29,233 nucleotides of DNA, taken from NCBI GenBank assembly GCA_044070495.1, contig JBIPSI010000047.1:1-29233 (forward strand), written 5' to 3'. This document shows positions 1 to 2,216 of the stretch, piece after piece. A program made the position numbers and the translations under genes. The notes under the pieces were generated by a model, which was not told where the DNA came from, ran no database searches, and saw only the letters and a list, made by a program, of their open reading frames with translations. This stretch comes from Spirulina sp. GTDB lineage: Bacteria > Cyanobacteriota > Cyanobacteriia > Phormidesmidales > Phormidesmidaceae. How positions within the stretch are numbered: the first letter of the stretch is position 1; every line of letters starts with the position of its first letter.

Positions 1-1027
1 AAACAGTAAATCCGTTTGAGTCCGTGTAGACCTGGAATTTTCCGGCCTGTCTCCCATTCCCGTGATATGTCTCGTTTGAACCACTCGAAACAGGCCCAGT
101 CAATGGAGCGGAAACGGTGTTCACATAGCTGCCAAATTGATTGGTATGCCCACCGACTGCCCGATAGACTACGCCCGACACTGAGCCACTATTTGAGCTT
201 CCAGGCTCCGTTTCAGGCCCTGGGGGAATGGCGTCGGGGTCGGTTTGGTTGGGGTAGTCGTCATTCCAGCCTAGGGAGCGGCCTAGTACTCCATTCGGGT
301 TGCCTGGGTCGGTATCGTCGGGGAATAGGTAGCGCCCTGCCGCCGCAGCTGCAGCTCCAGCAACACCGATAGGGCCAGCCCCGATGGCTCCAATCCCGCC
401 GCTAATCTCTGGGTAACTGGGGCGCTGGGGGCGGGGGTCTTGGGTGCGCTCCTTATAGTGCTCCTCTCGGTCGGGGGCTACCTTATCCCAAGCGGCATCT
501 ATCGCGGCCTCTCCGGCAATACCGATCCCTAGCCCCGCCCCACCCCGAATCACAGAACCAGGGGATAGCGTAGGAACACGGGGAACCCTGGGGTTCACCC
601 CTCGGCCTGGGTTGGGTGTACGGGGGGCACTGGAGGGGGCCGTCTGAGAGTTTACCCCTCGGCCTGGATTGTACCCAGTGGCCTGGGGTGGGGTACTACC
701 TGCGTTGATCGGGCCACCATCTAGGCCAGCACTGCGAACAGGCCGACCGCTGCGAGTGGAGGGCTGCCCTAGGGGGTCTCCGGCCAGCGGACGATACAGG
801 GGATCCCCCACATCGGCAGGCATCCGATAGGGAACCTCGGCGGTTACATTTTGCCCTGGGACGTTGAACTCCCTAACGTAGGTTGTGGGGCTGATGTTGG
901 AAGTTTGCGCCGTTTGGGGGATGGCGATCTGATCGATATTCCCCACCGTGGGAGGGCGGGTAATGGCTCCGCTATTGATCGATTGACCCAGCTCCGTTGG
1001 GCTAGCCGATTTGAGGGCAACAGACAT
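1..1027 (-). CDS. Pro/Gly-rich hypothetical protein, 3'-truncated by window edge (>342 aa); possible virion or attachment protein of an integrated element
   Basis: Manual translation from ATG at 1027 (MSVALKSASPTELGQSINSGAITRPPTVGN...) stays open to the window start. It begins 9 bp after the stop of the 99-aa ORF. It has a repeated NPGRGVN motif and two Gly/Ala-rich hydrophobic segments. Confidence 0.75.
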   Translation of the reverse strand, partial: MSVALKSASPTELGQSINSGAITRPPTVGNIDQIAIPQTAQTSNISPTTYVREFNVPGQNVTAEVPYRMPADVGDPLYRPLAGDPLGQPSTRSGRPVRSAGLDGGPINAGSTPPQATGYNPGRGVNSQTAPSSAPRTPNPGRGVNPRVPRVPTLSPGSVIRGGAGLGIGIAGEAAIDAAWDKVAPDREEHYKERTQDPRPQRPSYPEISGGIGAIGAGPIGVAGAAAAAAGRYLFPDDTDPGNPNGVLGRSLGWNDDYPNQTDPDAIPPGPETEPGSSNSGSVSGVVYRAVGGHTNQFGSYVNTVSAPLTGPVSSGSNETYHGNGRQAGKFQVYTDSNGFTV

Positions 1028-1036
1028 CACTCACCC

Positions 1037-1336
1037 CTAGGGCGTATAGCCAGACGGGATGGCAGCGTTACTAGCCTCCAGGGCCTGGGCGAACATGGGC
1101 AGCGTATCTTCTCGCCACGTATCCAGCAGTTGGATCGACAGACGGAAGATAATTCTTTCCGTCTTGTCAGCCGCCAACCCATCTTGGGCGGTGACCAGAG
1201 GGATTAGCGGACTAGCGTCGCTTTCCTGGTAACGGTCGTTTTTGTGAAGCTGATAAAAGGCTCCGCAGGCCCAAACGACTAACTTCTCTAGGGAGTCAAC
1301 CGAGGGGGGGAGGTCTGTAGTCGAAAATGCAGACAT
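1037..1336 (-). CDS. 99-aa hypothetical protein, probably co-transcribed with the Pro/Gly-rich ORF
   Basis: ATG start, globular-looking composition, tight operon spacing with ORF 1027..1, divergent from the recombinase. Confidence 0.7.
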   Translation of the reverse strand: MSAFSTTDLPPSVDSLEKLVVWACGAFYQLHKNDRYQESDASPLIPLVTAQDGLAADKTERIIFRLSIQLLDTWREDTLPMFAQALEASNAAIPSGYTP

Positions 1337-1521
1337 AGGAAAATCAGGAACTCTATGCCAGTTTTACGGCATTAAATCTTGATAGAGAAGATCAGGAAAT
1401 CTACAAATCGAGCATTAGAATTAATAGCTAGAACGGCCTACCGATGCGGCTTTTGGGCGACAGGGAAATATATTGAAGTTGCTGCGGTTCCTGTTCTTAA
1501 TGTTTTTCGAGAGAATCAGGA

Positions 1522-2082
1522 ATGAAAATTCATGGCAACGGGCAGGCGGAACCGCTAACAAAAACTCAGTTCAACACAGTGCTTAACAATTTGAGGGGGG
1601 CCTATCGTATGGCCTTCGCCCTGTGCTGGTATACGACCGAACGACCGGGGGCGATCCTTCAACTTGACGTTGAGGACTGCTACACCTCCGGCGACAAACG
1701 ACGGCCACGGGAAACCATTGTGATTGCCAGGGCCAAGCGGAAAGATCGGCGGACAAGGGAAGTTCCCGTAACGGTTGGCCTAGCCGCCGAGCTACGCCTC
1801 TACGACGCTCCGGCCTGGGGGCCATTGTTCCCTAGCGACAGCCGAAGCGGCCATCTTAGCTATCGGGCCTACTACAACGCTTTGTCTAGGGCTTTTGCAC
1901 AACTGGGGATGACGGGCTACAGCCCCTACAGCACTCGAAGGGGAGCCTTAACCCATCTCCTAAAGAAAGGCATTTCAACAAAGCGGATCCAGGAATTGAG
2001 CGGCCATGCTTCACTGGCCAGCCTGCAACCTTACCTGGAATCCAGCGAAGCAGAAAAGCGGCGAACAGCGGAGCTGCTGTGA
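1522..2082 (+). CDS. Short tyrosine recombinase (phage integrase family, essentially catalytic domain only)
   Basis: Motifs YTTERPGAIL (Arg I), YSTRR (HxxR variant), SGH and LQPYL (catalytic Tyr); 186 aa. Confidence 0.9.
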   Translation: MKIHGNGQAEPLTKTQFNTVLNNLRGAYRMAFALCWYTTERPGAILQLDVEDCYTSGDKRRPRETIVIARAKRKDRRTREVPVTVGLAAELRLYDAPAWGPLFPSDSRSGHLSYRAYYNALSRAFAQLGMTGYSPYSTRRGALTHLLKKGISTKRIQELSGHASLASLQPYLESSEAEKRRTAELL

Positions 2083-2188
2083 TCGTGTCTCAGGGTGAGA
2101 AACCAGGACTCTAACACTGAGACTAGACAGGTTGAATTTACTAGAGCAACATTCTTCAGCCAGTGACCGTCTGGATCCTTGACCTCTC

Positions 2189-2216
2189 GTACGGGCGCAC
2201 TGCGGTGCGCCCGTAC
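2189..2216. repeat. REP-like palindrome GTACGGGCGCAC-TGCG-GTGCGCCCGTAC
   Basis: Perfect 12-bp stem; near-identical copy at 7646-7673. Confidence 0.8.

Follow-up and report, generated by a model that had tools for sequence, protein, structure and literature searches.

Two settings are known for recombinases of the IS110 type: insertion sequences of 1.5 kb and loosely accumulated captured DNA. PM2-like corticoviruses, plasmaviruses and inoviruses are small temperate non-tailed viruses, and hallmarks among them include a double jelly-roll capsid, a packaging or Zot-type ATPase and a rolling-circle Rep. In the available part of one report on IS110 and IS1111 elements with a bridge RNA or seekRNA, the DEDD recombinase lies at one extreme end of the element, and a variable segment of a non-coding region, found downstream of the gene in the IS1111 type, is complementary to the target flank; both junctions carry a short core, and separate copies occupy separate specific sites (PMC11187229). 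Large cargo-carrying IS110 elements bear accreted plasmid or resistance DNA, according to the accessible part of a preprint, which makes no mention of cyanobacteria (10.64898/2026.08.14.744561). Here, we compare these systems with a locus at the start of a 29,233-nucleotide stretch of Spirulina sp. DNA (the window) from genome G000.

An inserted element beside a puuE-like gene

The left end of the window carries a minus-strand operon and a divergent gene. The p99 gene (1037..1336, 99 aa) heads the operon, 6 bases upstream of a long ORF (2..1030, minus strand), which encodes 343 aa of the N-terminal part of a Pro/Gly-rich protein and is open at its 3' end. Since contig C47 begins at window base 1, the long ORF is truncated by the assembly. 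The divergent intergenic region (1337..1521) contains blocks conserved in a second copy of the locus and in the relative G005, and is followed by a tyrosine recombinase gene (1522..2082, plus strand), whose 186-aa, Xer-like product consists of the catalytic domain only. The ORF listing thus confirmed the layout proposed by an earlier, sequence-only reading: a 99-aa ORF, a Pro/Gly-rich ORF of more than 342 aa and a divergent, compact tyrosine recombinase. An inverted repeat (1340-1351 and 1487-1498) brackets the intergenic region; an invertible promoter switch of the fimbrial kind, operated by the small recombinase, was considered and rejected, as the right arm of the repeat is not conserved in G005. 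A scan of window positions 1-2400 for sigma-70 promoters and terminators found none.

This three-gene block (long ORF, 99-aa ORF and 186-aa recombinase) is present twice in genome G000, and each copy is cut at a contig end, at the same base. A search for a continuation contig within this genome, with the three proteins and the first 150 bases of the window, matched only contigs C47 and C50. The two copies lie at unrelated loci, and empty sites were found in 5/5 relatives examined for copy 1 and in 5/5 for copy 2. In the copy-1 empty sites, the puuE-like gene (2253..3200, plus strand; 315 aa) adjoins another host gene with none of the ORFs between them, indicating that the block is an insertion. 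The product of the puuE-like gene belongs to the polysaccharide-deacetylase family (Pfam, 37.6 bits against a cut-off of 23.1). Synteny of the ORFs with puuE, which the sequence-only reading had set against its own proposal of the edge of an integrated element, was absent in all five relatives, and the empty site that it had sought next to puuE was present in each.

We mapped the junctions to the single base. The right non-coding end of the element (2083..2150, plus strand) closes with a terminal motif of about 9 bases (about 2142-2150), which is common to G005, G012:C45, G062:C51 and copy 2. The element ends at window base 2150 and is followed by a duplicated 4-base core (2151..2154), which comparison with the empty sites L028-L030 places at both junctions of copy 1; host DNA resumes at 2155. 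Overall, a core of 3-4 bases is duplicated at both junctions of copy 1, copy 2, G005 and G012:C45. We located the other end of copy 1 on contig C50, so that this copy sits between the host gene C50:6057-6833 and the puuE-like gene. These observations bear out the proposed edge, and window positions 1-2150 probably form the right-hand end of a mobile element of about 12 kb, here in the first of its two copies.

The remainder of copy 1 would run from C50:6014 down to base 1, plus about 3.7 kb missing from the assembly, apparently lost by the assembler owing to the near identity of both copies in this part. In this reading, C50:1 would be joined to C47:1 in copy 1, and C56:15457 to C50:22842 in copy 2. 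The sequence-only reading had looked to the left 10-20 kb for mobile, replication and packaging genes. This flank is absent from contig C47, and the far side, on the other contig, bore out the expectation in part: it holds a mobile gene, for an IS110-family recombinase, and no recognisable replication or packaging gene.

Complete relatives share both ends, with lengths from a mapped 11.9 kb up to an estimate of about 14.5 kb. In G005, a contiguous element of 11,861 bp keeps the gene order, and contig C13 of G000 holds the corresponding empty site. G012:C45 and G062:C51 have the same ends and the same order; the G062 junction could not be fixed. In five diverged elements, the IS110-like gene is kept at the far extremity. 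The element most likely moves as a single unit.

A recombinase at each end and a flank-complementary hairpin

The far-end protein, examined in the C56 copy, matches PF01548, the N-terminal DEDD, RuvC-like domain (57.7 bits against a cut-off of 29). Its best solved relatives among PDB sequences are the IS621 (E 0.0021) and ISCro4 transposases. The C-terminal IS110 domain PF02371, which bears the catalytic Ser, was not detected by Pfam at E up to 0.05, and a weak second stretch aligned to IS621. This DEDD recombinase is the likely mover of the element.

A non-coding region of 131-140 bases, containing a conserved hairpin, lies downstream of the DEDD recombinase gene. In 3/3 mapped insertions, a segment of the hairpin is a 9-11-base reverse complement of the left flank plus core, at an offset of 66-70. 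When the 31-base target window was compared with the non-coding end, this was the longest match in each of the three; the other matches of at least 6 bases are only same-strand 6-mers, in G005 and copy 2. The hairpins gave folding z values of -5.5, -4.8 and -14.4. We aligned eight of 10 close recombinase loci, leaving out L045 (hairpin absent) and L056 (truncated gene). Double changes occur in 21 of 30 pairs, and 86.9% of cells pair compared with 67.5% in shuffles (0/500), with the structure derived from the same alignment. For the helix between guide and flank, 9/10 pairs covary across the eight loci. The paired "flank" of G062, G044 and G058:C4 shows conservation across about 22 bases, suggesting that it may be element DNA there. 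The mapped insertions showed no guide for the right flank, and Rfam returned only a sub-threshold miRNA-like match, on the G005 hairpin. By analogy with bridge-RNA and seekRNA elements, the conserved hairpin, with its variable segment complementary to the host flank and core, would probably act as a guide for integration.

The 186-aa protein matches PF00589 with 51.8 bits (cut-off 27.1) over profile positions 3-170 of 172, and the PHROGs integrase family phrog_216 with E 6.2e-27. Its best solved relatives are XerA (4a8e, E 1.8e-6) and XerD. Aligned with XerA, the protein keeps the second Arg, the His and the Tyr nucleophile and has Tyr in place of the first His of HxxR; the first Arg falls beyond the aligned stretch. 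The protein begins at the catalytic domain and has neither the core-binding nor the arm-binding N-terminal domain of phage-type integrases. Similar recombinases of about 182 aa are encoded by 27 of 53 genomes of the genus; small contigs carry many of them, a placement suggestive of plasmid resolvases. Neither a dif-like nor a res-like site was identified for the recombinase. Rather than serving as an integrase, it most likely resolves multimers of the excised circle.

The p99 operon and its carriers

Neither of the two minus-strand ORFs matched a Pfam family above the cut-off. Gly makes up 14.3% and Pro 12.2% of the long-ORF fragment, which has hydrophobic Gly/Ala windows at residues 159-178 and 208-236; its middle part (window about 261-681) has no nucleotide similarity to the second copy. 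In complete relatives the long protein has 855-919 aa. Its family comprises 104 clusters, all hypothetical, in which every organism name given is a cyanobacterium, and its relatives gave only sub-threshold glycine-zipper and tape-measure matches. The p99 family comprises 105 clusters, nearly all unnamed or hypothetical.

We predicted structures for p99 and for a 278-aa protein that adjoins the long ORF. The AlphaFold2 model of p99 is confident (pLDDT 92.9) and matched no known fold (best Foldseek E against the PDB 1.2, best VIA-align Z 2.7, best BFVD E 0.43). The model of the 278-aa protein (pLDDT 88.8) shows a helical bundle and an alpha/beta domain; the best Foldseek E was 0.069, and a VIA-align Z of 5.9 reflected a generic helical bundle. 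Both predicted folds are confident without matching a known one. The further proteins of the module have about 172-190, 117, 344 and 139 aa, and those of the other element type 525, 226, 186 and 156 aa. A 2H-phosphoesterase assignment for the 278-aa protein (Z 4.6-5.0 to three chains) was rejected, as the family lacks an invariant His, and the model matched neither a jelly-roll nor an HK97 fold. No PDB sequence was found with the profile of the 278-aa family. In the protein atlas, whose scores are leads only, its neighbours were viral hypothetical clusters (0.93), and the best score for a 525-aa protein was at most 0.84. IMG/VR contained no relatives of p99 as a single query or of the 278-aa profile; the p99 profile gave one weak match of 20 residues (L022), probably by chance. 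A tblastn search of 50,697 GenBank phage records with the 278-aa and 525-aa proteins found no matches.

The module of 99-aa and long proteins is also carried by 14-18-kb elements of other relatives, which are integrated at tRNA-Cys and encode a primase. In G024 and G012:C1, the elements have entered tRNA-Cys at its 3' end, with a 50-base repeat, and encode a tyrosine integrase, an excisionase-like HTH protein and a primase-helicase, all absent from the G000 type. The G024 element, which also carries an Xre gene, was in addition assembled as an exact circle of 18,288 bases. This related type carries one tail-fibre-like gene, with PHROG matches down to E 9e-15. The pair of long and 278-aa proteins is also found on a ParAB plasmid, and lengths of 13-19 kb are common among the metagenome contigs that bear the module. 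There are also several small membrane proteins, along with an FHA membrane protein. p99 and the long, putative glycine-zipper protein open a conserved operon shared with the circular, tRNA-Cys-integrating elements, and we infer that this operon encodes a module for transfer or for particles, whether a virion, a satellite or a surface structure.

The sequence-only reading had further proposed a non-tailed, possibly filamentous, virus-like element. We scanned for hallmark genes with 18 proteins of the G024 element against Pfam and PHROGs, 17 proteins against PHROGs and 20 against Pfam. Neither database revealed a Rep, capsid, portal or terminase, and no Walker A motif occurs in ORFs of at least 80 aa of three complete IS110-type elements (G005, G012:C45, G062:C51). 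By the same searches, neither a Zot-type assembly ATPase nor a rolling-circle Rep was found. Together with the fold of the 278-aa protein, these results do not support the proposal: the filamentous reading is unlikely and the non-tailed virus reading is unproven.

Several other explanations were weighed. That the ORFs are ordinary chromosomal genes conserved beside puuE is already refuted by the empty sites in 5/5 relatives and the two copies at unrelated loci; outside this genome, 8 of 24 genomes of the genus carry p99, as does 1 of the 16 other families that were sampled. Nothing was seen in favour of this explanation, and we give it practically no weight. If the 186-aa recombinase were instead the integrase, the IS110-like gene would be a passenger, or an insertion sequence repeatedly landing at the edge. 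The position of the recombinase directly at the right end, the catalytic residues kept in the alignment and the matches to PHROG integrase families fit this idea. However, it lacks the N-terminal DNA-binding domain, its homologues on small contigs look like plasmid resolvases, the duplicated core has just 3-4 bases, and the flank-complementary segment adjoins the IS110-like gene, which keeps its extreme position in five diverged elements. An integrase role is quite improbable.

What kind of element it is allows further readings. A temperate non-tailed virus, membrane-containing or pleomorphic, could have a divergent capsid or spike, with p99 and the long protein as structural components. The G024 relative, both integrated and circular and equipped with an integrase, an excisionase-like protein, Xre and a primase-helicase, is in line with such a virus, as are the small membrane proteins, the FHA protein and the sizes of the metagenome contigs. 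The missing Walker A ATPase, Rep and capsid matches, the 278-aa fold, the IMG/VR and phage-record searches and the ParAB plasmid argue against it, and we consider it unlikely. A phage satellite with adaptor and fibre-like parts would be packaged in the capsid of a helper phage. The G024 and G012:C1 backbones resemble satellites, and the tail-fibre-like protein, the viral atlas neighbours of the 278-aa protein and the lack of capsid or packaging genes of its own agree with this. But neither a helper nor a gene for a small terminase or for capsid remodelling was recognised, even a primase is lacking from the IS110-type elements of G000, and the atlas neighbours count only as leads; a satellite is therefore a doubtful reading. 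We tentatively put forward as possible that the module of p99, long and 278-aa proteins represents a new group of small non-tailed viruses or satellites of filamentous cyanobacteria that lacks every known capsid or packaging hallmark, and in which one lineage swapped its tyrosine integrase and tRNA site for an RNA-guided IS110-type recombinase. If so, that lineage would be a virus-like element able to retarget its integration by rewriting a guide of roughly 10 bases.

Relation to described elements

In its size of 10-18 kb, circular form, integration and small membrane proteins, the group resembles small temperate non-tailed viruses, whereas their double jelly-roll capsid, packaging or Zot-type ATPase and rolling-circle Rep were undetected here. 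The integrase, excisionase-like protein, primase-helicase and tRNA integration of the G024 and G012:C1 elements recall phage satellites (P4-like, PICI); in contrast, the shared module matches no described satellite gene. Marine virion-encapsidated elements and tycheposons likewise combine a tRNA-integrating integrase with a primase, as the sister elements do, but the window copy is without these backbone genes. The 186-aa protein shares with Xer and plasmid multimer-resolution recombinases its closest solved relatives, the kept Arg, His and Tyr nucleophile, and the frequency of homologues on small contigs, but differs in its length, in the missing N-terminal domain and in the Tyr at the first His of HxxR.

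If the reading of the mobile element holds, an IS110-type, guide-bearing recombinase would act in nature as the integration module of a conserved multi-gene element. Since the same cargo also rides on classical tRNA-integrating backbones within the genus, two integration strategies could be compared for one cargo, and several natural pairs of guide and target are offered for testing. The cargo itself is a cyanobacteria-wide protein set, of which two members, with confidently predicted structures, match no known fold.

In its likely mode of movement, the element resembles IS110 and IS1111 elements with a bridge RNA or seekRNA. As in the available part of that description, the DEDD recombinase is terminal, and the non-coding region, placed downstream of its gene as in IS1111 members, includes a variable segment complementary to the target flank; the copies occupy separate specific sites with a short core at both junctions (PMC11187229). 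Unlike these elements, the flank match is on one side only, the C-terminal domain is not recognised by Pfam, and a second, Xer-like recombinase stands at the opposite end. The subterminal inverted repeats of the IS1111 subgroup (11-13 bp) were not found in 3/3 elements, whose first and last 70 bases share no exact inverted match of at least 7 bases, a comparison that could miss imperfect repeats. Like the large IS110 elements in the accessible part of their description (10.64898/2026.08.14.744561), the element carries cargo. In contrast to them, its host is a filamentous cyanobacterium, and its cargo is a conserved gene set of 10-12 kb, kept across diverged copies.

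Insertion beside the puuE-like gene

The ORFs described in the sequence-only reading of the window were recovered at the same positions. The minus strand carries a fragment of the long ORF (2..1030; 343 aa, 3' end open) and, just upstream of it, the gene for p99, a 99-aa protein (1037..1336). The plus strand carries a 186-aa tyrosine recombinase (1522..2082), assigned by Pfam to PF00589 with 51.8 bits against a cut-off of 27.1, and a 315-aa puuE-like protein (2253..3200), whose match to the polysaccharide-deacetylase family (Pfam) appears consistent with the earlier puuE label. 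Neither p99 nor the long ORF fragment matched a Pfam family above cut-off. Of the residues in the fragment, 14.3% are Gly and 12.2% Pro, and hydrophobic Gly/Ala segments lie at 159-178 and 208-236. The predicted model of p99 was confident (pLDDT 92.9) and found no fold match in PDB or BFVD.

We compared this locus with five relatives of the same genus (G043, G019, G005, G018, and G017). In each of them, about 100-500 bases separate the puuE-like gene from the homologue of a second region of the studied genome, C50:6010-6835, and the long ORF, p99 and the recombinase are absent between them. These three ORFs are therefore part of an insertion. Base-level comparison with three empty sites placed the right end of the element at window position 2150, followed by a 4-base core (2151-2154) that is also found just before the left end, C50:6014. 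Since the relatives are only 84-88% identical here, this junction is good to about 1-2 bases.

The three-gene block (long ORF, p99, small recombinase) recurs at one end of contig C50. The matching stretches are C50:22163-20768 for window 682-2078 (92%) and C50:22842-22583 for window 1-260 (98%), and the similarity ends at 2078, where the recombinase gene stops. In between, window 261-681 and C50:22164-22582 have no nucleotide similarity, and the middle of the long protein is Pro-rich in the window and Gly-rich and hydrophobic in C50. Judged from sequence, this part of the long ORF resembles a cassette exchanged between copies that are otherwise 92-98% identical. At the corresponding place, the long protein of relatives has collagen repeats.

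Contigs C47 (the window, C47:1-29233) and C50 break off at an identical base within the long ORF, with no continuation of either end on any other of the genome's 74 contigs. Likewise, C56 and C50 stop at one identical base inside a shared ORF, indicating that the breaks arose because the middle of both copies collapsed and was lost from the assembly. About 3.7 kb is missing per copy, by the length of the G005 element. Copy 1 thus consists of C50:6014 down to 1, the missing stretch and window 1-2150. In copy 2, C56:9485-15457 and C50:22842 down to 20723 stand on either side of that stretch. The flanks of copy 2 are adjacent in the same five relatives; its duplicated core is 3 bases, and it replaced the last codons of a transporter gene. 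With empty sites in every relative compared, mapped boundaries and two copies, the earlier claim of an integrated element's edge was borne out.

On the host side, a perfect palindrome with 12-base arms (2189-2216) lies in the spacer ahead of the puuE-like gene. Similar copies of about 30 bases occur at no fewer than seven other contig positions of this genome and in several relatives, which gives it the look of a short dispersed palindromic repeat. Another short dispersed repeat, of about 40 bases (approximately 3218-3257), lies downstream of the puuE-like gene and is found at six places in G052 and at several in G045 and G046. The translation of a 194-aa minus-strand ORF (3592-4176) resembles a response-regulator receiver domain with an Ala/Pro-rich linker and then a coiled coil after it.

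Far side, complete relatives and two backbones

We annotated the ORFs of the far side of both copies (C50:1-6014 and C56:9485-15457) with Pfam. The extreme far end encodes a 400/419-aa protein, read outward, with an IS110-family DEDD domain (PF01548, 57.7 bits against a cut-off of 29). Its closest solved sequence relatives are the bridge-RNA recombinases IS621 (E 0.0021) and ISCro4. The far side also encodes an FHA-domain membrane protein (PF00498) and a 334/338-aa protein, part of which resembles a PHROG of unknown function present in the G024 element; the remaining small ORFs matched no Pfam family. Where the sequence-only reading had looked to the left flank for mobile, replication or packaging genes, the mobile gene was found in the form of the IS110-family recombinase, and no replication or packaging gene was recognized by Pfam in these stretches.

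In G005, an uninterrupted element of 11,861 bases has the gene order of the two copies, which runs from the IS110-like gene through small ORFs, a 278-aa protein, the long protein (here 855 aa) and p99 to the small recombinase (68% identical). Its 3-base core is duplicated, and the empty site is found in contig C13 of the studied genome. The same architecture occurs at G012:C45, with a 4-base core at both junctions, and at G062:C51, each about 14.5 kb as estimated from gene positions. We refer to these three elements as type B with an IS110 backbone. The locus G058:C4:1667185-1684961 holds a pair of IS110-like genes separated by about 13 kb, of which one is shortened to 335 residues, and a small recombinase gene close by; it may represent nested or tandem elements.

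The p99/long-protein module was also found on a different backbone. At G012:C1, an element of about 14.2 kb adjoining tRNA-Cys encodes a 358-aa integrase, an excisionase-like protein and a 675-aa primase/helicase. G012 carries both backbones with related cargo (C1 about 149200-163400; C45 about 81000-95700). In G024, a variant module that we call type A comprises an 812-aa long protein, a 525-aa protein and a 366-aa tail-fibre-like protein (PHROG matches down to E 9e-15), on a backbone of integrase, HTH_17 protein, Xre regulator and DUF3854/VapE primase-helicase. This 18.3-kb element is present twice in the near-complete genome: integrated in the 3' part of tRNA-Cys with a 50-base direct repeat (C1:3373008-3391344), and as the separate contig C6 (L018). 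The latter, with 18,288 real and 100 masked bases, is an exact circular permutation of the integrated element in which the attachment site separates the integrase gene from p99. Enough of the excised form was therefore present for it to be assembled.

The 186-aa recombinase consists of a catalytic domain alone; its closest solved relatives are XerA (E 1.8e-6) and XerD. Aligned to Xer, it keeps the Arg, the His and the Tyr nucleophile, and the first His of HxxR is replaced by Tyr. Because relatives of about 182 aa (about 40% identity) occur in 27 of the 53 genomes of the genus, many on small contigs, we infer that its role is to resolve multimers of the circular form and that it is not the integrase. 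A role as an invertible switch was considered and rejected.

Possible viral, satellite or plasmid-like nature

Within the genus, 8 of 24 other genomes were found to have p99, as was one of 16 other families sampled. Its 105 clusters in a large protein collection are nearly all unnamed or hypothetical, and the named ones come mostly from Nodosilinea-like cyanobacteria. Among the 104 clusters of the long-protein family, some have collagen repeats in the linker; the 278-aa family has at least 160 clusters across cyanobacteria. Many of the longest contigs of these clusters are 13-19 kb.

The element may be a pleomorphic virus or a satellite, or it may be plasmid-like and carry a surface or transfer module. 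Four features are suggestive of a virus-like or satellite-like life style: type A has a tail-fibre-like gene, the backbones of the sister elements are of the lysogeny type, the G024 element was assembled as a circle, and viral hypothetical clusters neighbour the 278-aa protein in the atlas (score 0.93, a lead only). In viral collections, p99, the 278-aa protein and the 525-aa protein had no relative beyond one weak 20-residue match (L022), and the Gly-rich part of the long protein in relatives gave only sub-threshold glycine-zipper, tape-measure and tail-lysin matches. The model of the 278-aa protein (pLDDT 88.8) comprises a helical bundle and an alpha/beta domain. Its best match (Z 5.9) is a generic bundle, and the alpha/beta domain reaches Z 4.6-5.0 with three 2H-phosphoesterase-fold chains with the catalytic His missing; as modelled, it is not a capsid fold. 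Homologues of this protein occur on two plasmids of one Nostocales strain. On a 15.6-kb ParAB plasmid (L026, CP019638.1; 2566-5525), which lacks p99, a homologue lies beside a 710-aa long protein that combines collagen-like repeats with a coiled coil and a hydrophobic segment.

The sequence-only reading had compared the small and long proteins with the structural module of filamentous or other non-tailed proviruses. Among the 18 proteins of the G024 element (Pfam and PHROGs), as well as sets of 17 (PHROGs) and 20 proteins (Pfam), none was recognized as a capsid, portal, terminase or Rep protein or as a packaging ATPase, and ORFs of at least 80 aa in three complete IS110-type elements contained no Walker A motif. 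With Rep, capsid and packaging ATPase missing from these searches, a filamentous-phage identity is unlikely.

Putative guide and comparison with known systems

Downstream of the IS110-like gene, an intrinsic-terminator-like hairpin is followed by a long hairpin that spans the left end of the element and reaches into the host flank. For copy 1, copy 2 and G005, whose junctions were fixed independently by empty sites, we searched the non-coding end for matches to a 31-base target window. In every case the longest was a reverse complement of left flank plus core (11, 9 and 10 bases, respectively), 66-70 bases from the element end. Other matches of 6 bases or more were same-strand 6-mers only (G005, copy 2), and the right flank had no complementary match in the non-coding end of these three. 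The flanks differ among insertions and the complementary segment differs with them; the neighbouring arm and loop are conserved. Folding z values of the junction hairpins were -5.5, -4.8 and -14.4, and -0.5 for a fourth stretch that was cut too short.

We aligned the hairpin from eight of ten close recombinase loci, leaving out L045 (no such hairpin) and L056 (truncated gene). With the structure derived from this same alignment, 21 of 30 predicted pairs keep pairing via changes on both sides, and 9 of 10 pairs covary in the helix of variable segment and flank. Pairing cells amounted to 86.9%, against 67.5% in shuffles (none of 500 reached the observed value) and 38-48% with slid partners. Three of the eight loci have in common a conserved 22-base "flank" that is possibly the element's own, and the G062 junction is not fixed.

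IS1111-type elements are described as having a non-coding region downstream of the transposase gene that gives a 70-100-nt seekRNA with short target-complementary segments (PMC11187229), and the layout found here fits that arrangement. Three results are not in keeping with it: the IS110-like protein has no C-terminal domain visible to Pfam, subterminal inverted repeats were not found, and the hairpin region matched no Rfam family.

Judged by title, literature on Nodosilinea and prophages held nothing on this element, and that on cyanobacteria, IS110 and bridge RNA only unrelated work. Among the papers listed, cyanobacterial literature on phage satellites, integrases and primases reportedly deals with marine satellites and tycheposons. 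Large natural IS110 elements with cargo have already been described in a 2026 preprint (10.64898/2026.08.14.744561), whose text contains no word starting with "cyanobacteri", "virus", "IS1111" or "tyrosine recombinase". We regard the present element, on these results, as a conserved, wholly unannotated 10-12-kb cargo exchanged between IS110-type backbones with a putative guide and tRNA-integrating backbones.
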